A stretch of 59,806 bases of DNA, filler included, from Fonticula-like sp. SCN 57-25 (Eukaryota): assembly GCA_001724245.1 (NCBI GenBank). It is 11 parts of 11 records of this genome, joined end to end, with 100 filler letters (N's around TTAATTAATTAA, not from the genome) between each part and the next. Parts side by side here need not be neighbours in the genome. Positions count along the whole stretch, not along the records: positions 17,119 to 22,343 come from MEDX01000608.1; 10 more parts are not named here. One strand, given 5' to 3'. The position numbers were made by a program, and so were the translations under genes. This document shows, piece by piece, positions 5,951 through 54,665 of the stretch; positions within the stretch are counted from its first letter, which is position 1; every line of letters begins with the position of its first letter. The notes under the pieces are model-generated. The model had not been told where the DNA came from and did no database searches. It saw nothing but the letters and a program-made list of their open reading frames with translations.

Positions 5951-6050
5951 NNNNNNNNNNNNNNNNNNNNNNNNNNNNNNNNNNNNNNNNNNNNTTAATT
6001 AATTAANNNNNNNNNNNNNNNNNNNNNNNNNNNNNNNNNNNNNNNNNNNN
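5951..6050. other. Artificial contig spacer N44-TTAATTAATTAA-N44 (also at 11694, 17019, 22344, 27663, 32958, 38249, 43540, 49324, 54566)
   Basis: Identical 100-nt spacer with stops in all six frames, present ten times. Confidence 0.99.
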
Positions 6051-11690: not shown

Positions 11691-11894
11691 CTANNNNNNN
11701 NNNNNNNNNNNNNNNNNNNNNNNNNNNNNNNNNNNNNTTAATTAATTAANNNNNNNNNNNNNNNNNNNNNNNNNNNNNNNNNNNNNNNNNNNNCAGGCCC
11801 GCCGATAGGCACCTCGGTGCGCAAGCGCGCGCGCTCCTTTATAGTGCTAACGTTGTGTGGCTAGCTTGCCCCGCTTGCACCTGCGCCGTCGTTC

Positions 11895-16625: not shown

Positions 16626-17118
16626 CATGATGATCGGAGCTTCGTTGACCAGAGCAGTTTGATCTGACTTTAAGACAGTCTTTTTGTCGCAATAAACTCA
16701 TAAAATACACTCTTTTAATCCCACTGGCCCGCCTATAATTCTCCCCGCTCTGTCCCCTCTCGCTACATCACGCTAGATGCCGCTCTGCCCTGCTCTGCTC
16801 TCCTCTTCTGGCCCACCTGCTAGTCAACGGTAGGCGGTTTTGTTTGAACCGCCGACCAATCACGGATCGGGAAAGTATTTTTGGGATTTGCACAGGCCTG
16901 CCACAGGCGTGTGCTCTATTTGAGGCTCCATCCGGCCAAATACTCAGTGTTGGCACAAATCAAATATACCGTGGCCTGCCCATATTGTTCAATGCACACC
17001 GATCATAGTGATGAGACGNNNNNNNNNNNNNNNNNNNNNNNNNNNNNNNNNNNNNNNNNNNNTTAATTAATTAANNNNNNNNNNNNNNNNNNNNNNNNNN
17101 NNNNNNNNNNNNNNNNNN

Positions 17119-17941
17119 AGTTTTACTATCAGCTCGTTCCCAAGCGTCTCCCGCAGTTCCCATGGACGCCATGGCCTGCCGCGCCTCAACTGAGGCCCTC
17201 TGCAAGGACGTGGAGCCAAATTCACGCCGCTACGTCCTCTTTCTATCATCGTGAAGCGCGCTGGCGCATGATCAACCGCTGCCACCCGCTGAACTATCGC
17301 CTTTATGAGGCGGACGACCCGCGCACGAATTGCGCACGCGGCTGCCCTGTGCGCGAGACTTACGAGCATGCCTTTTTGGAGTGCCCGGTGGTCCGCTCGC
17401 TATGGGACACTATGTTGACTCGAATCCGTTCGCTGTGGACGCTGCCGCCGATGCCGAGCTTGCTGCAGCTGCTCGTCTCGCCGGACACGATGATATGTTC
17501 GCTTCCGCAGGAGACTCAAAAACGTCTGACGTTTGTTTTGAACTGTGTGGTGAGGCATATCTGGCGTATGCGTCCCTCTGCGTACACCGCTGCGCCCGTT
17601 ACGACCTCTCCGCAACACCTGCTGGCTTCATTCGAGGCCTCCCTCGTGCATGATCTGACCATCATCAAGGCACTCGACCCCTCGCTGGAGACCTGGATCT
17701 CCGCCCTTCGTCCGCTATATAGCGGGTGACCTCTCTTGTTCGTTTTCACTCTCTTGTCTATGTATTATCGTGTGGTCTGCTGTGCTATGCTGTGATGCTG
17801 TGCTATGCGGACAACTGATATGGTGTGTCATCGTTTGTCACGATTTGGTCAGATTTGAGATCTGACTGGATCGTGCAGCAGCCTACCGTTGAGGTCGCTG
17901 CTGGGTGTTGCTCTTTGTAATGCTACAATACATTCTTTAAA
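17119..17941 (+). mobile_element. 3' end of an L1/Tx1-type non-LTR retrotransposon (ORF2 C-terminal zf-RVT knuckle + 3' UTR)
   Basis: Open frame 17121..17729: ...TWSQIH...EARWRMINRCHPLN...CARGCPVRETYEHAFLECPVVRSLW, the Cx2-3C-ET-H-F-CP-W motif of L1-group ORF2. The 3' UTR has a GC hairpin and ends AATACATTCTTTAAA followed by CCCTAA. Confidence 0.85.
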
Positions 17942-17958
17942 CCCTAAACTACTAACCC
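17936..17958 (+). repeat. Left telomere-like inverted terminus TTTAAACCCTAAACTACTAACCC
   Basis: Matches the reverse complement of 22237..22259 at 20 of 23 positions, with the first 12 perfect. Confidence 0.7.
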
Positions 17959-18085
17959 CTCCAGCGAAGATGAACTATAAATGCAGTTGTAAAAGCTTTA
18001 ATATATTGTCTTTCCCCCGTACTACAAACTCACTGCGAGTGACCGGCGAACGCACCCAACAAGTTGAAGATCCTTCATCGGTTCT

Positions 18086-19696
18086 TCATTTCGTTCTGTT
18101 CGGCCAGATCAGCTTGAGAAGCATTTCTTGGCGAGTCACGAATTCCTCTTCCTTCCCTCTCAGGACGTTAGCTTCCGCTAGGAGCTTGACACTGCCTTCC
18201 ACAACTTCCTCAGCGGCAGAGACACGGAAGGAGCAAGCGGTCGCCAGCACGGCGCCATTGACAATCTCGGCCATGCAGAAACACCAGTAGGAGGGCGCCG
18301 ACGGGTGCGTGGCGACAGCGTGGCATACCTCAATGAGGCGGGATTCATCTCGACGTAAGAGCACGATATGAGCAGCAAGTTTCATGCCGTACACGAAGTT
18401 CCCGAATCCGGGGTACACATGTTGGTACGAAATGAAATCCGGCAGCCGGCTGAGACACTGGCCCTTCACAGGCACCATGGACATCTGGGCCGAACCAGAT
18501 GAAGCGGCAGCGGCGGTGAAATCCGGAGCCACAGCGGCATTTTGATTAATGGATTCCAGCTGTCCGGACATTGCTACGCCCAGCAACTGCAATAACTTTT
18601 CCACTGTGGGGTGCAGCTCGCAGCTCGCCGACGCGGGAATGACAAGCTGGGAGACATCCGCCGAAGCGGCGGGCCACTGGAGCGGGATCCACGTGGTGGT
18701 TGCACTTGCTGTAGAATCCAACTCAGAGACGACGTCCACGGTGACCACGAAGTGGAGGTCGAACATGCTGAAGCAGGCCAGATATGGGCAAGGCTGAAAT
18801 TCGCTCAGCGGCGATACAAACGAGCGCACGTTGCTGTAGCGCACGAAATCGGCCATACTTGCCGGTTTCCACCCTTCGGCCGTTGGAGTCGGTGCCGCCG
18901 TGACGAATAGCTTGAAGGTCGGAGCTGCCACGTTCTCCGGATTTGCGACGTTAGCTCGAAGTGCGTTCTGATGAACAATGTGGCTACACAGGAAACGTCG
19001 CAGCGCTTTCTCGAGATCCATGAGCCCGCTCAGAACCAAACTTCTACGTTCGATTGTGTCCGCCACTGCGAAGTACTTCTCGCAGTCGTGCACAATTCGG
19101 CGCCAGAGAATTGCGGCCACGGCCACCCAGAGCCAGTGGCCGTAGTCGTAGGTGCCTGTCACGCCCGGATTCGCCTTGCGAGCCTGCAATATAGGCTTTA
19201 GTTTCCCTTCGCATTCCCCAGTGACTCCCTCGCAGGATACCAACTTCGTGCAGTCTGCCATCTTGTCTGTGCGGCAGCACAGGTAATCCTTCACTTTATC
19301 CGGCGCCACAATTCTCCCGTCCTTGAGATGCTTCCCCCCTCCACCCAGCTCCATGAGCAGGCAGTTGGACTCGATGTGGCTGCCTGCGATGAAGACGGCG
19401 AGGTCGCCTTTTCCGTCGGCCGACGGCATCGTGGTGCGCCAGCAGAGGCCACAGTACGAAGGAAGAATGTCGCGAGTGTTGAGCCGAGCACTGGTCAGCA
19501 GGAGCTCCGAGTACAATGCAGGATCGGCGTCCATCATCTGCAGCGGACTGGTGGTCTTCACTACCGTCAGCGCTGCATCGTTGAGCTCCTTCATAATTTT
19601 GCCGGCACCGGCAGATGATTTCAAGACCTTCGCTGCTGCGCCGACCGCCGACTGCAGACGAACGCGGGGAGAGGTTGAGGAGGAGGTGAAACTCAT
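18086..19696 (-). CDS. Intronless protein with a putative HNH/His-Me-finger nuclease-like domain
   Basis: Probable ATG at 19696. Motifs YCGLCW...GSHIE...KDYLCC...SCEGVTGECE...YGHWLWVAVAAILWR resemble the CxLC-SHI-LLCxxCE-WLxxxxxSxxWR pattern of bacterial-type HNH-family proteins. Confidence 0.55.
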   Translation of the reverse strand: MSFTSSSTSPRVRLQSAVGAAAKVLKSSAGAGKIMKELNDAALTVVKTTSPLQMMDADPALYSELLLTSARLNTRDILPSYCGLCWRTTMPSADGKGDLAVFIAGSHIESNCLLMELGGGGKHLKDGRIVAPDKVKDYLCCRTDKMADCTKLVSCEGVTGECEGKLKPILQARKANPGVTGTYDYGHWLWVAVAAILWRRIVHDCEKYFAVADTIERRSLVLSGLMDLEKALRRFLCSHIVHQNALRANVANPENVAAPTFKLFVTAAPTPTAEGWKPASMADFVRYSNVRSFVSPLSEFQPCPYLACFSMFDLHFVVTVDVVSELDSTASATTTWIPLQWPAASADVSQLVIPASASCELHPTVEKLLQLLGVAMSGQLESINQNAAVAPDFTAAAASSGSAQMSMVPVKGQCLSRLPDFISYQHVYPGFGNFVYGMKLAAHIVLLRRDESRLIEVCHAVATHPSAPSYWCFCMAEIVNGAVLATACSFRVSAAEEVVEGSVKLLAEANVLRGKEEEFVTRQEMLLKLIWPNRTK

Positions 19697-19937
19697 GGCA
19701 GTAGAACTTGGGGGAGGGCAGCAAAGGAGACAGCGACGCAGGCTCTCGTCTTGCACTGGGGGTGCAGAGCCCCAAACCGGTTCTACCCCCCATCTTTCAG
19801 ATTGTCCAATCACATCGCCGCTCTCTTAGGGCCAAATTATCTGTGCTACACCCAATCGCGTGTGAGGGTCGTGCTACGTCAAATCCGAAATGAATTAAGG
19901 GTACTGTATCGTGTGTTCGTCGCGCATCGGGAATATC

Positions 19938-21701
19938 ATGTCCAGAAGCGATGAAATATCAGACACCATCAGGCGCCTGCTACAATACGAGGAGGTTACG
20001 GTGAATGACGAAGGTTGGGCGTCGTTAGCCTCGCTGGGGTCGGCCATTCGCAATGAGGGATACGTTTTCCCGGGAAAGTTAAAATCCTATTTGAGGACGT
20101 TTGACTGGCTTGAGTTGGGTATAGTTGGCGGTAGCAAATGGTATGTGCGCCTATGTGACGGCAGTGATACCGAACAATCGTCTTCGCCGGCCGTCTCGCC
20201 GGCCATCTCTCCCCTTGTGATGATGTCTACCAACCCATTTGCAGGTAGACTTGCGCCTGCTGAAACATCACCCGGCACCACTCTTGGTGCGCCCATTTGT
20301 TCTGCTCCATTCATTGTGGCACCTGTGGAATATCCTGCCTTTTCCAACGGCACGTTTGCTTCTCGATCCCCTATCAAGTTTGTCGAACTCCTTAGACAAA
20401 TGTCAGTCCCCTCCTCTGAATCTGCTGCCACGTTGCCCGGGTCCTTTGCTTCGTCACCTCTTCGACCGACCAAAGCGCGCCATCTCATTGTGGGTCGAGC
20501 GCCGGCAACTCGCGGCCATTTTGGCACCCTGCCTAAGAGTCCCGGCTATGCGTCGCCTGTAGATGGCGACTATGTGTCGCTCAACACGTCGCTTCCTTTT
20601 TGCCTGCTGACGGTTGGCCTTCAGGGCGCGGGCAAGTCGCACAGCCTTGCTGTGACCATGGAAAACTGTCTTGCTCACACTCCGCCCGTGCCGACTATTA
20701 TTTTTCACTTTGACAAGGACGAAACAAACGTTTGCGAGGCTGCAACCGTTGCGTTCTCCAAAAACGCTAATCGCAGTCTCGTTGTCTTTGTGTCGCCATC
20801 ATATTTCAAGCAACGCAAGGCGTACTATAGTGGCACTCCTAGCTGCACAGTTTTGCCGCTGGTATTTCGATGGCGGACTCTCACGGCCTCGTTCTTGCGC
20901 AGTTTGATGCGCATTAGCGTGGACGACAAGATGCCTCTGTATATGACGGGCCTGCTCGAGGAGCTCCGCTCGTTCCAAAAGGCGGACCGCAAGATGAGCT
21001 ACGCCGAATTCCGTGCGAAACTGGAAGAAGACAGCGGCAAGCTATTGTCTAGCCAGTCGTCACCCCTTGCGCAGCGCCTCGCATTGCTAGACGCATTCGT
21101 TGCCGAGTCGGAGCAGAACTCGGAGTTGCTCGCCATTGTTGACCAGTGCAACGGTGATGTGGAAACAATACTGGCGAACCAGGCCGAGCCGTGTCTGGTC
21201 GTTTTTGATCTAACGGACCCGTTGCGCACTGGTGAAGAGGCAAATGGTATCTTCCAGGTCGTCCTCGGCATGTTTCAACGGATTCCGGCCGAGCGCCTCA
21301 AGCTGGTTGTTTTTGACGAAGCGCACAAGTACCTTAATCAGAACGGCGATGACGAGCTTAGTAAAACCATAACAGAGATTGCGCGCGAAATGCGCCACAA
21401 TGGAACTGCCTTGGCTGTTTCCACACAGTCCCCTCGCACGCTCCCTTCCGAGCTCCTCGAGCTTGCATCCATTGTTCTCATGCACCGATTCTCATCTCCC
21501 GATTGGTTCAACGTTCTCAAGCAGCGACTCCCCATCCAGGACACAGATTTTCCGCGCATCCAAAACCTTGACACAGGCCAAGCCTTGGCATTCAGTCTGT
21601 ACTGGGCGTTGGAGCAAGGGACGATTACCCACAACGTGCACCTCATCCAAGTTCGCCCGCGATACACAATTGATGCAGGCAAGACACGCACTTTTACCTA
21701 G
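19938..21701 (+). CDS. Intronless LOTUS/OST-HTH + HerA/FtsK/VirB4-like P-loop ATPase
   Basis: N-terminal DEGWASLASLGSAIR...KLKSYLRTFDWLEL...WYVRL (OST-HTH/LOTUS-like); Walker A GLQGAGKS; Walker B LVVFDEAHKYL; HerA-type REMRHNG...VSTQSP...MHRFSSPDW; C-terminal RPRYTIDAG. Confidence 0.8.
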   Translation: MSRSDEISDTIRRLLQYEEVTVNDEGWASLASLGSAIRNEGYVFPGKLKSYLRTFDWLELGIVGGSKWYVRLCDGSDTEQSSSPAVSPAISPLVMMSTNPFAGRLAPAETSPGTTLGAPICSAPFIVAPVEYPAFSNGTFASRSPIKFVELLRQMSVPSSESAATLPGSFASSPLRPTKARHLIVGRAPATRGHFGTLPKSPGYASPVDGDYVSLNTSLPFCLLTVGLQGAGKSHSLAVTMENCLAHTPPVPTIIFHFDKDETNVCEAATVAFSKNANRSLVVFVSPSYFKQRKAYYSGTPSCTVLPLVFRWRTLTASFLRSLMRISVDDKMPLYMTGLLEELRSFQKADRKMSYAEFRAKLEEDSGKLLSSQSSPLAQRLALLDAFVAESEQNSELLAIVDQCNGDVETILANQAEPCLVVFDLTDPLRTGEEANGIFQVVLGMFQRIPAERLKLVVFDEAHKYLNQNGDDELSKTITEIAREMRHNGTALAVSTQSPRTLPSELLELASIVLMHRFSSPDWFNVLKQRLPIQDTDFPRIQNLDTGQALAFSLYWALEQGTITHNVHLIQVRPRYTIDAGKTRTFT

Positions 21702-22215
21702 CACTGTAACGTATCATGGCCATGACGATATTAATCAGACATGGGCTAGTTTTGTTTCAGGGTCCATTTGGTTTCAAAATCCGGATTTTATTGTAAGCGG
21801 TTGAAATCCAGCAGGATTCCAAAAGGGTAGGTCTAAGCATCATCGACTTTATTTTGATCGATGATGCGGGGCCGTCAGTATCATCCAAATTTTGAACGGC
21901 TCATTCCTAGAGTATTAGAAGATCTGCGATTCAACCAAATTTCAACCAAATTCGATCAGAAATGGGTTACCAGTGGCCACGTATGACGAAAATCAATCAA
22001 ATTCGGCCACTTAGTCGGTTAAAGCTAACGGAATTTCAAAGCAAATTTGGTTGAAACTTGAAATTCGGATGCGGATGGACGAGCCGCAAGATGACGACGT
22101 CGCTGATCGTCGACGTGCTGCCAGCGAGGATGCAGTCGGCGCTACTGCTACGTCGCCGGTACCAGCAAGTCAAGCCGAACGTGCTAGTAGTGCCACTGGC
22201 AGTGGACGCAACGTG

Positions 22216-22259
22216 TTAGGGTTAGGGTTAGGGTTAGGGTTAGGGGGTTAGGGTTTAAA
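22216..22259 (+). repeat. Interstitial telomeric tract (TTAGGG)5-GG-TTAGGG-TTTAAA
   Basis: Directly visible; followed by ~85 nt of non-telomeric sequence. Confidence 0.95.
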
Positions 22260-22473
22260 ATAGTGTATTAAAGTGCTATGCACCGGACGGGGACCGCAGT
22301 AGCCCGCCCTTACAAAAGAAACGATTTAAATCATGCAAGATCTNNNNNNNNNNNNNNNNNNNNNNNNNNNNNNNNNNNNNNNNNNNNTTAATTAATTAAN
22401 NNNNNNNNNNNNNNNNNNNNNNNNNNNNNNNNNNNNNNNNNNNTATCTATTTGTTGTTCTAATTTCTTGAAAG

Positions 22474-27662: not shown

Positions 27663-27774
27663 NNNNNNNNNNNNNNNNNNNNNNNNNNNNNNNNNNNNNN
27701 NNNNNNTTAATTAATTAANNNNNNNNNNNNNNNNNNNNNNNNNNNNNNNNNNNNNNNNNNNNCGCCAGTCCCTC

Positions 27775-32957: not shown

Positions 32958-33057
32958 NNNNNNNNNNNNNNNNNNNNNNNNNNNNNNNNNNNNNNNNNNN
33001 NTTAATTAATTAANNNNNNNNNNNNNNNNNNNNNNNNNNNNNNNNNNNNNNNNNNNN

Positions 33058-38248: not shown

Positions 38249-38439
38249 NNNNNNNNNNNNNNNNNNNNNNNNNNNNNNNNNNNNNNNNNNNNTTAATTAA
38301 TTAANNNNNNNNNNNNNNNNNNNNNNNNNNNNNNNNNNNNNNNNNNNNCTGTCCCTGCACCCTGATTCCCCTTCTGATTCCTCTGATTCCTCTGATTCCC
38401 ACGCATCCACCCCCAATTCCACCCCCAATTCCACCCCAG

Positions 38440-42946: not shown

Positions 42947-43689
42947 GTATGTGAAAGGGGAAAGGAAGGGAAAGGAAGGGTTATTGTAGGGTATTGTAGG
43001 GTTATTGTATGGTATTGTGTGTGTTATAGTATGGTATAGTATGGTATTGTGTGTGTTCATGTGTGTGTTCATATGTGGGTATATGTGTGGTTTGTGAGGG
43101 TTATAGTATGGTATTGTGTGTGTCCACGTGGTTGTAGTGTGTGTTTCAGTGTGTGTTTTAGTGTGTATTCATGTGTGTATGGTAGTGTTTGTGTGTGTGT
43201 ATGGTGTATGAATGTGTATGTATGTGTGTGTGTATCAGTCTATGTATGTATGATTGTCAGGGTATGAGTCTGGGGTGGATATTGGATAGTGTATGTATGA
43301 GTGTATGTATGAGTGTATGTATGAGTGTATGTATGTGTATGATCATGTGTGTGTTCATGTGTGTTTTTTCTCTCTTTTCCTCATTTCTTCTCCTTTTTCC
43401 TTCTTTTCTTCTCCTTTCTTCATCTTTTCCCTTCATTTCCCCTTCTTCTCCTCTTCCCCTTCACTTACTAACACGTTCCCTCTCTTCTTCAGCCCCCCTC
43501 CCCCCCCTCACGACCCTCCCCTTCTCCGCCTCCTCCCTCNNNNNNNNNNNNNNNNNNNNNNNNNNNNNNNNNNNNNNNNNNNNTTAATTAATTAANNNNN
43601 NNNNNNNNNNNNNNNNNNNNNNNNNNNNNNNNNNNNNNNGAGAGAAAATACGGCGAGGAAAAAGAAAACAATACTGAAAAGAGACGTAC

Positions 43690-48714: not shown

Positions 48715-49423
48715 GATGACGATGCTCCTGTGGCGGATCCCTCGGTTGATGGAAACACCCAAAAGTTCGTCATCGTCGTTTTCAAACCGACCTTTCCGGG
48801 CGGGGGCGGCAGAATGGGAGATTGTCTTGAAGTAGCACAGAAACACGGGCTGCTCAGCAGAGAGGGTGCCTCGCTGGCAGTGTGCTTTGGCCAGGTAGCT
48901 ATGTAAGCTACTTTGTCGTTTACGTGGCCGATGGGCATCATGGACCGTCAGCATCTCCAGATTCATCATCGGTCTAGCCGGCTTCTAGCTGAGCCCTTTG
49001 AGTAGTCTTTTTGAGGTGTGCTTTGTGCATTGAAGGAAAGGAAAGGAATTCGGTAATAGTGTTTCATTATATATACACAAATGTAAAAGGGCAGAGTAAA
49101 TATAAACTCGCTCCAAATAGCTTGACTCCAAAGAGTATCATGTCCATGTTCAAGTGACAAGCTCTACAGCAGACGAGTTAGCAACCATAAAGCAAAAACA
49201 CACACAAGTATAATGGCACAAAATAGTGTTGCAAAGTGAATCAGACTAGCGCCAAACAGGCATTTGAATCAACAAGGCCTTCGACCTCCTTTCATTCGAC
49301 CGTCGTGATGTTGTCATCATACANNNNNNNNNNNNNNNNNNNNNNNNNNNNNNNNNNNNNNNNNNNNTTAATTAATTAANNNNNNNNNNNNNNNNNNNNN
49401 NNNNNNNNNNNNNNNNNNNNNNN

Positions 49424-54565: not shown

Positions 54566-54665
54566 NNNNNNNNNNNNNNNNNNNNNNNNNNNNNNNNNNN
54601 NNNNNNNNNTTAATTAATTAANNNNNNNNNNNNNNNNNNNNNNNNNNNNNNNNNNNNNNNNNNNN

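Follow-up and report, generated by a model that had tools for sequence, protein, structure and literature searches.

A HerA-fold ATPase gene and a cysteine-rich orphan gene between the inward-facing 3′ ends of two LINEs in a microbial eukaryote contig

There are several described retroelements whose ends are joined to telomeric repeats in a fixed orientation, including TRAS/SART of insects, MoTeR/FoTeR of fungi and the Athena/Coprina elements. MoTeRs insert into telomeric tracts (PMC12857005), and Athena/Coprina, which are endonuclease-deficient Penelope-like elements, have short reverse-complement telomeric repeats that enable attachment to G-rich overhangs (PMC8557442). Also described are ATPase-effector pairs such as HerA-NurA, SIR2-HerA and MAD7-MAD8, the last of which is called an ATPase-nuclease module of the MADS system (PMC13662399). 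Both groups bear on a two-gene segment at positions 17936-22259 of a 59.8-kb stretch of DNA (the window) assigned to Fonticula-like sp. SCN 57-25 (GCA_001724245.1), where the segment lies on contig MEDX01000608.1. The source is an uncultured microbial eukaryote, whose DNA was recovered in metagenomes of bioreactors and wastewater. An earlier note had read the segment as a telomere-bounded cassette holding an HNH-like nuclease and a HerA/FtsK-type ATPase. Here, the "telomeric inverted ends" are found to be the 3′ termini of two diverged copies of one family of long interspersed nuclear elements (LINEs), which were independently inserted on either side of the two genes.

The segment includes two intronless open reading frames (ORFs), both open in the standard code, at the positions given by the earlier note: a minus-strand ORF of 536 amino acids (aa) and a plus-strand ORF of 587 aa, which are separated by a divergent spacer of 241 bp. 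Metagenome contigs were scanned with the 536-aa protein family, and this yielded 151 pattern matches, four of which were confirmed. Among these is contig L001 (11,298 nt), in which the complete window contig (5225 nt) is present with 99.98% identity and one 1-nt gap, such that L001 3167-8390 corresponds to window positions 22343-17119. Another contig, L002, equals window positions 18675-22343 at 100% identity and extends 59 nt further. L001 carries a long ORF on each side of the segment, and these belong to the elements named LINE-a (left in the window) and LINE-b (right). The features of the window contig are as follows.

17119..17729, plus strand: 3′ part of LINE-a ORF2 (C-terminal region of the reverse transcriptase, zf-RVT); the full 940-aa ORF2 is at L001 7780-10602 (-)
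17730..17941, plus strand: LINE-a 3′ untranslated region (UTR), ending in AATACATTC-TTTAAA, with TTTAAA at 17936-17941
17942..17958, plus strand: CCCTAA unit and degenerate telomere-like bases behind the LINE-a 3′ end, forming the left inverted arm together with TTTAAA
18086..19696, minus strand: 536-aa Cys-rich orphan protein, no known family or fold found
19697..19937, no strand: divergent intergenic spacer, 241 bp
19938..21701, plus strand: 587-aa protein with a winged-helix-like domain (~1-72), a disordered linker (77-177) and a HerA-fold P-loop ATPase (~180-587)
21702..22215, no strand: non-coding 3′ flank of the ATPase gene
22216..22253, minus strand: (CCCTAA)-type tract directly behind the LINE-b 3′ end
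22254..22343, minus strand: last 90 nt of the LINE-b 3′ UTR, ending in AATACACTAT-TTTAAA; the 991-aa ORF2 is at L001 3-2978 (+)

The inverted similarity of the two ends is real. The arms at 17936-17958 and 22237-22259 match at 20 of 23 positions (87%), and local alignment of the two ends gives a score of 20, compared to a maximum of 17 among 300 random pairs from the same contig. The 12-mer TTTAAACCCTAA has exactly two copies in the window, one per strand, where 0.08 are expected by chance with up to one mismatch, and at least two matches were seen in none of 100 shuffles. However, the match does not stop at the borders of the proposed unit, but continues outward past TTTAAA (AATACA-N3/4-TTTAAA) into the UTRs of the flanking elements. 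The right arm includes a genuine tract, (TTAGGG)5-GG-TTAGGG at 22216-22253 in plus-strand reading. In the left arm, there is only one CCCTAA unit with degenerate bases after it, and no telomere tract is present.

Both flanking ORF2 products match RVT_1 (9.7e-29 and 6.4e-28) and zf-RVT, which indicates a reverse transcriptase of the type found in retroelements lacking long terminal repeats. The two copies share 63% protein identity in ORF2 and 67% DNA identity over 2993 nt, and the 3′ ends of both face inward, into the segment. The sequence TTTAAA-CCCTAA starts 207 nt (LINE-a) and 273 nt (LINE-b) past the ORF2 stop codon, and its orientation with respect to the element is the same in both. A common LINE terminus can be described as AATACA-N3/4-TTTAAA followed by CCCTAA repeats, of which there is one unit on the left and there are about 6.5 units on the right. 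The matching distance from the ORF2s, the inward 3′ ends and the shared terminus together lead us to conclude that the inverted repeat consists of two LINE 3′ termini with reverse-complement telomeric repeats. The statement that no transposase is encoded was correct for the interior of the proposed unit, but its left end is directly adjoined by a zf-RVT ORF at 17268-17729 (+), which is the tail of LINE-a ORF2.

Two ways of deriving the arrangement from a single element were rejected. A 3′ transduction by LINE-a is ruled out since the tail is found as its reverse complement at the far end instead of in direct orientation, and twin priming of a single LINE is ruled out since the two copies are only 67% identical. 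A ciliate-type nanochromosome was also rejected, given that the ORFs are open in the standard code and the GC content is about 50-57%. Ciliate telomere repeats, moreover, differ from the CCCTAA found here.

Three sequencing runs contain the stretch (X1, X2 and X3, all bioreactor or wastewater metagenomes, from two studies), and their Logan contigs were aligned to L001 at 88% likeness. None of the four runs considered is an RNA data set. The figures for X2 and X3 are identical and may represent one data set, and all three runs may be sources of the assemblies, and so they are not independent. In X1, the inner segment is covered by one contig of depth 17.1 (L001 3303-7593). In X2 and X3, one contig of depth 9.57 (L001 3303-8332) extends from the telomere tract past the left junction and on into LINE-a, whose own depth of 9.64 in these runs is about equal to that of the inner segment. 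The summed depth on the LINE-b side reaches 130-790 in X1 and 22-146 in X2 and X3, and this side is therefore multi-copy. The inner 4.3 kb is single-copy, with flat depth in one contig. No empty-site joint between the two segment ends is reported in the Logan contigs of X1-X3, although contigs can miss rare variants.

These observations bear directly on the proposal of a mobile or horizontally acquired nuclease-ATPase conflict module located between telomere-like terminal inverted repeats. It is true that the 20/23 ends with TTTAAA on both sides are readable as inverted termini with a 6-bp duplication, and the ATPase is indeed of the HerA type, but the match extends into LINE UTRs, an ORF2 sits at matching distance on both sides, the depth is single-copy, no empty-site joint is reported, no nuclease is detectable and the ATPase falls within a eukaryotic clade that is set apart from bacteria by a branch with 100% support (see below). 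We consider this proposal extremely improbable. The segment is probably an ordinary single-copy host gene pair situated between two inward-facing LINEs, with no 4.3-kb unit as such.

Some irregularities were noted elsewhere in this DNA. In the 3′ flank of the ATPase gene, there is a short repeated segment at ~21740-22116, with a contig depth of 43 versus 17 in X1 and loose ends near 21858 and 21916. A 28-nt inverted pair is present in the same flank (21936-21963 and 22033-22060). The repeated segment may be a small non-autonomous element. There is also a perfect 60-nt palindrome at L001 11125-11184, near the end of that contig, where the sequence is joined differently in the Logan contigs. This palindrome probably arose in the assembly of L001, and it lies outside the window contig.

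Several points weigh against the assignment of the ends to LINEs. The first concerns the right junction, which rests on three assemblies (the window contig, L001 and L002) with possibly shared source samples. No listed Logan contig crosses the right tract at L001 3254-3302, which is skipped as a repeat in the alignment. Perhaps the true end of the segment was connected to some other copy of LINE-b during assembly, by way of CCCTAA repeats common to both. The multi-copy nature of the LINE-b 3′ end would permit such a join, as would the missing contig just mentioned. Nevertheless, this is very unlikely, because the identical tract, including its variant GG unit, is present in all three assemblies, and because the tract spans only 38-49 nt. 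The usual short reads are longer than this.

A second point is that the UTR ends themselves are not similar beyond chance when globally aligned. Their terminal 25 nt give 17 matches, a value reached by 295 of 2000 random pairs of UTR 25-mers. The case thus rests on the exact 12-mer, on its position and on the local-alignment control. In addition, the TTTAAA-CCCTAA junction is known from only two full LINE copies, which are 67% identical, plus one loose contig end in X1-X3, where ...AATTACCAACCCTAAGGATTTAAACCCTAA (...CCCTAAGGATTTAAACCCTAA) abuts the final 48 nt of the LINE-b UTR. The number of examples is small. Both LINE copies run off L001 or break before their 5′ ends, and no 5′ junction or target-site duplication is visible. 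Finally, a Pfam search of the upstream LINE fragment gave no match, and a putative APE-type endonuclease is suggested only by YAPN-like and GDFN-like motifs in L001 10778-11125 (-).

One possible mechanism is that UUUAAA(CCCUAA)n forms the end of the LINE RNA, or else that the LINE uses TTAGGG-like sites for nicking and priming. A tail of variable length would then arise at each 3′ junction through target-primed reverse transcription. Two independent LINE insertions with inward 3′ ends would read on one strand as TTTAAA-CCCTAA ... TTAGGG-TTTAAA, which is the arrangement that had suggested a miniature linear chromosome. The fixed orientation of a retroelement end joined to telomeric repeats is shared with the known telomere-associated elements listed above. 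Here, however, the element is an L1-like LINE (RVT_1, zf-RVT), and it is neither an element with a restriction-enzyme-like (REL) endonuclease nor a Penelope-like element. Furthermore, the junctions adjoin single-copy genes, a chromosome end is not proven, and there are three junctions only.

Alternatively, the repeats could belong to the host. The LINEs would then be telomere-repeat-specific elements similar to TRAS/SART that had inserted into pre-existing TTAGGG tracts, and the segment would be, or would once have been, subtelomeric or a healed chromosome fragment. On both sides, G-strand repeats are followed by an antisense LINE 3′ end, as in a chromosome end to which a retroelement has been added, and the loose contig end resembles a head-to-tail array in which CCCTAA lies between 3′ fragments. 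Head-to-tail arrays are typical of repeat-targeting elements. Three junctions and no visible 5′ ends are compatible both with a tail carried by the LINE and with insertion into pre-existing telomeric tracts. Other aspects fit this alternative less well. The left side has only one CCCTAA unit, the summed depth of the LINE-b family is 8-46 times that of the segment in X1, which is a better fit to a dispersed family than to a telomere-restricted one, and the depth of LINE-a equals that of the segment, with both joined in one contig. We consider this alternative unlikely.

The plus-strand protein is a HerA-fold P-loop ATPase, predicted to be of the hexameric type, from a eukaryotic family with members in chytrids, Dikarya, protists and one putative giant-virus contig. 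There are 41 non-self relatives at E ≤ 0.001 among 8000 candidates scored, and these include sequences from Powellomyces, Boothiomyces, Geranomyces, Chytriomyces, Podochytrium, Cadophora, Macrolepiota, Verticillium and Clathrospora, as well as MMETSP and EukProt transcripts. When the window protein was aligned with 29 relatives, the critical residues of Walker A (G227-S234) and Walker B (D460-E461) proved to be invariant in all 30 sequences (G227, G230, G232, K233, S234, D460 and E461). The same is true for DEAHK (460-464) and for S495, Q497 and P499 of the STQSP motif.

The assignment to the HerA/FtsK type made by the earlier note is upheld. When searched against the PDB, a family profile finds HerA chains (8xau, 1.7e-8; 8yho, 6.2e-8), and Pfam HerA_C is found in 9 of the 30 family members. 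The AlphaFold model has a mean predicted local distance difference test (pLDDT) score of 78, with 85-97 in the core and a disordered linker at residues 77-177. The top Foldseek matches of this model are all HerA-type, with E values from 4.5e-14 to 1e-8 and a total of 150 matches at E ≤ 0.001; they include 4d2i (HerA, 4.5e-14), 8wfd (7.9e-14), 9x1m (2.2e-13) and 8wld (5.3e-13), and 7es4 is matched at 5.5e-10. Lastly, the PADLOC model mad8 (PDLC04140) matches residues 213-552 (3.5e-16). The fold is held in common with archaeal HerA of the HerA-NurA system, SIR2-HerA, TdpA and the C-terminal domain of DndH, but sequence identity to these HerA-type structures is only 12-19%. The window ATPase also differs in being a eukaryotic stand-alone protein with an N-terminus unlike those of the HerA systems, and no nuclease or SIR2 partner was identified for it. 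Its predicted role is most likely that of an NTP-driven nucleic-acid translocase.

The LOTUS domain that had been proposed for this protein is clear in some members of the family but weak in the window representative. There are clear OST-HTH matches in 2 of the 30 members, both N-terminal (best 8e-15). In the window protein, OST-HTH (PF12872) matches residues 7-41 with 14.8 bits (E 0.026), which is below the gathering cut-off of 23.8 bits, and no match was obtained in a BLASTP comparison of its first 80 residues with P0018, a member that bears OST-HTH. Residues 1-72 are modelled in a helix-strand-helix-helix-strand-strand order that includes H2-16, H30-39, H48-52, E58-62 and E68-72 with pLDDT values of 68-84, an arrangement compatible with a winged helix. 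The N-terminus is probably a winged helix that binds nucleic acids.

A quick tree of 52 rows was built from the window protein, 23 of the 41 eukaryotic relatives, the homologue on the putative giant-virus contig (L005) and 27 of 80 bacterial loci (every third one, plus L012). Eukaryotic and bacterial ATPases are split by a long branch with 100% support, and the window ATPase is located among environmental and chytrid sequences. This placement with eukaryotic sequences, at a great distance from the bacterial rows, gives no indication that the gene was recently acquired from bacteria, contrary to the suggestion of horizontal transfer. Its end branch is 1.36 compared to a median of 0.34, or four times as long, and the protein is either evolving fast or under relaxed constraint, despite its intact catalytic motifs.

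Two members of the tree have unusual hosts. L005 is a 47.7-kb contig from a viral collection with a 41%-identical homologue at its end (3-938, +), which falls inside the eukaryotic clade. Its neighbours encode a Pox_A22/Ydc2-type resolvase, a BspA-type leucine-rich repeat protein and a Clp protease, and L005 looks like a giant-virus contig. L012 is a 7.4-kb contig of a Sphingomonadales metagenome-assembled genome, wherein a 754-aa homologue (108-2372, +) is encoded beside a FadB-like gene. In the tree, this protein is placed within the eukaryotic part, adjacent to P0016 and P0018, and it represents either a eukaryote-type copy in a bacterium or a mis-binned contig.

As judged by sequence, the nearest bacterial relatives of the window ATPase are the C-terminal domain of MAD8, which belongs to the MADS defence system. 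In prokaryotic genomes, a scan gave 220 relatives, which match residues ~183-585 at 23-33% identity, and 80 of these loci were kept. In 61 of these 80 loci, the ATPase domain is located at the C-terminal end of a protein of 1750-1950 aa. A ~520-aa protein is encoded upstream in 59 loci and a ~229-aa protein downstream in 52. In the example of L013 (113-7871), these correspond to MAD7 (3.5e-164), MAD8 (3.1e-56 for the N-terminal model) and a PP2C phosphatase. The order MAD7, MAD8, PP2C is kept across Bacteroidota, Chloroflexota, cyanobacteria and others (L012-L091). The likeness of the window protein to MAD8 is confined to the C-terminal ATPase domain, which matches the mad8 profile. At 587 aa, it is without the MAD8 N-terminal region (no match to NF047742, antiphage_MADS8), its neighbour is unrelated to MAD7, and it belongs to a clade separate from the bacterial ATPases.

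The minus-strand protein is far more isolated. There are only three other clusters of relatives (51%, 43% and 38% identity) among 1.84 billion representatives; a word-indexed search found only the protein itself, and a profile search found only the protein itself and P0044. Positions C82, C85, W86, H107, E109, C112, C140, C141, C155 and E156 are invariant in the family, and the protein is probably zinc-binding. P0044, the closest relative (51%), is a 943-aa protein at L003 391-3219 with extra Cys-rich stretches and a C-terminal SET domain (2.2e-13). This fusion hints at a chromatin-linked role for the family.

The nuclease assignment of the earlier note is unsupported at the sequence level. 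For the 536-aa protein, Pfam gives no family at E ≤ 1, PADLOC and NCBIfam give no match, sequence searches of the PDB give only noise (E > 0.6), and the ESM Atlas gives no usable match for either the whole protein or residues 60-210. Similarly, the HNH models of Pfam are not matched at E ≤ 1 by any of the four family members (including P0044-P0046). There is a CxxC ... SH(I/T)E stretch (C82, C85, S106, H107 and E109) that loosely resembles HNH_2-type motifs. In comparison with HNH/His-Me finger nucleases, the protein is without an invariant Asn or a second His after H107 in the Cys-rich region. The AlphaFold model is poor, with a mean pLDDT of 57.9 and values below 50 at residues 73-160. On this low-confidence model, Foldseek returned no matches at E ≤ 0.001, and the best VIA-wide match (Z 5.1) was on a helical hairpin. 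Homology to MAD7 was also considered and rejected, as the probability returned by hhalign is 0.1% when the family is compared with aligned MAD7 sequences (30 of 54 ORFs), and there is no mad7 match in PADLOC or NCBIfam.

The 536-aa frame is intact in the window and in X1. There is one base fewer at L001 7114 (window ~18402) in L001, X2 and X3, which shortens the ORF to 437 aa.

It could be argued that the two genes form a functional but non-mobile ATPase-effector pair like MAD7-MAD8, HerA-NurA or SIR2-HerA, in which the orphan would be a new effector regulated by a HerA-like ring. The head-to-head genes share a 241-bp spacer, MAD7 is the immediate upstream neighbour of the bacterial ATPase relatives in 59 of 80 loci, MAD7-MAD8 is called an ATPase-nuclease module as cited at the outset, and solved structures of HerA-fold ATPases are, from their titles, mostly complexes with effectors. 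Given the conserved ~520-aa partner beside the bacterial relatives, the two genes here may also function as a pair. However, the orphan matches neither MAD7 nor any nuclease or other family in the searches above, and one of its alleles is frameshifted. The ATPase has 41 non-self relatives, including those in named chytrids and Dikarya, whereas the three orphan clusters include no named organism in the searches made. This difference argues against a conserved pair, but it is not a test of this lineage. In the viral collection, four loci have a long match to the ATPase (L005-L008), none of them with an orphan homologue within 10 kb, and a scan of that collection for orphan homologues gave 43 pattern matches, none of which was confirmed. 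The only loci of other organisms with orphan homologues, L003 (3513 nt) and L004 (2208 nt), are too short to include a neighbour, and so neither of the two is informative. A functional pair is, in our estimation, quite improbable, and the adjacency of the two genes most likely reflects ordinary gene packing.

There are ten artificial linkers of 100 nt (N44, then TTAATTAATTAA, then N44), which divide the window into eleven separate pieces of ~5.1-5.9 kb each. The linkers are at the following positions.

5951-6050: N44-TTAATTAATTAA-N44
11694-11793: N44-TTAATTAATTAA-N44
17019-17118: N44-TTAATTAATTAA-N44, left border of the contig with the two genes
22344-22443: N44-TTAATTAATTAA-N44, right border of the same contig
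27663-27762: N44-TTAATTAATTAA-N44
32958-33057: N44-TTAATTAATTAA-N44
38249-38348: N44-TTAATTAATTAA-N44
43540-43639: N44-TTAATTAATTAA-N44
49324-49423: N44-TTAATTAATTAA-N44
54566-54665: N44-TTAATTAATTAA-N44

Both genes and both arms are inside one piece (17119-22343, 5225 nt), and the end of the right arm is 84 nt from the next linker. Because the pieces are joined by linkers, genes in other pieces are not neighbours of the two-gene locus. These pieces encode eukaryotic domains such as BAH, Sin3/PAH, SH2 and mitochondrial carrier, and the window is a chain of unlinked ~5-kb contigs, probably from a metagenome bin. The contrast that had been drawn between the intronless pair and intron-bearing genes elsewhere in the window therefore compares unlinked contigs. 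As a general caution, windows of linker-joined contigs give unlinked genes the appearance of neighbours, and any finding that spans or compares across linkers is suspect.

A mobile nuclease-ATPase module with telomere caps would, if true, be remarkable in a eukaryote, but the evidence gives the ends to LINEs and reveals no nuclease. What remains, besides the ATPase family, is a small orphan Cys-rich family with one SET fusion and a LINE family with telomere-complement repeats at its 3′ junctions. A bolder interpretation has two parts, and we regard it as rather unlikely. The first is that there is an L1-like LINE lineage whose RNA ends in reverse-complement telomeric repeats that prime on TTAGGG DNA. 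If true, this endonuclease-bearing lineage of an uncultured protist or fungus would parallel Athena/Coprina and TRAS/SART by convergence. The second is that the two genes are a eukaryotic ATPase-effector pair, which if true would be descended in logic from MAD7-MAD8 or other HerA-effector defence modules and would have a new effector fold. Apart from these possibilities, the eukaryote-wide family of stand-alone HerA-fold ATPases is an added candidate for the defence-type domains that are shared across the domains of life.

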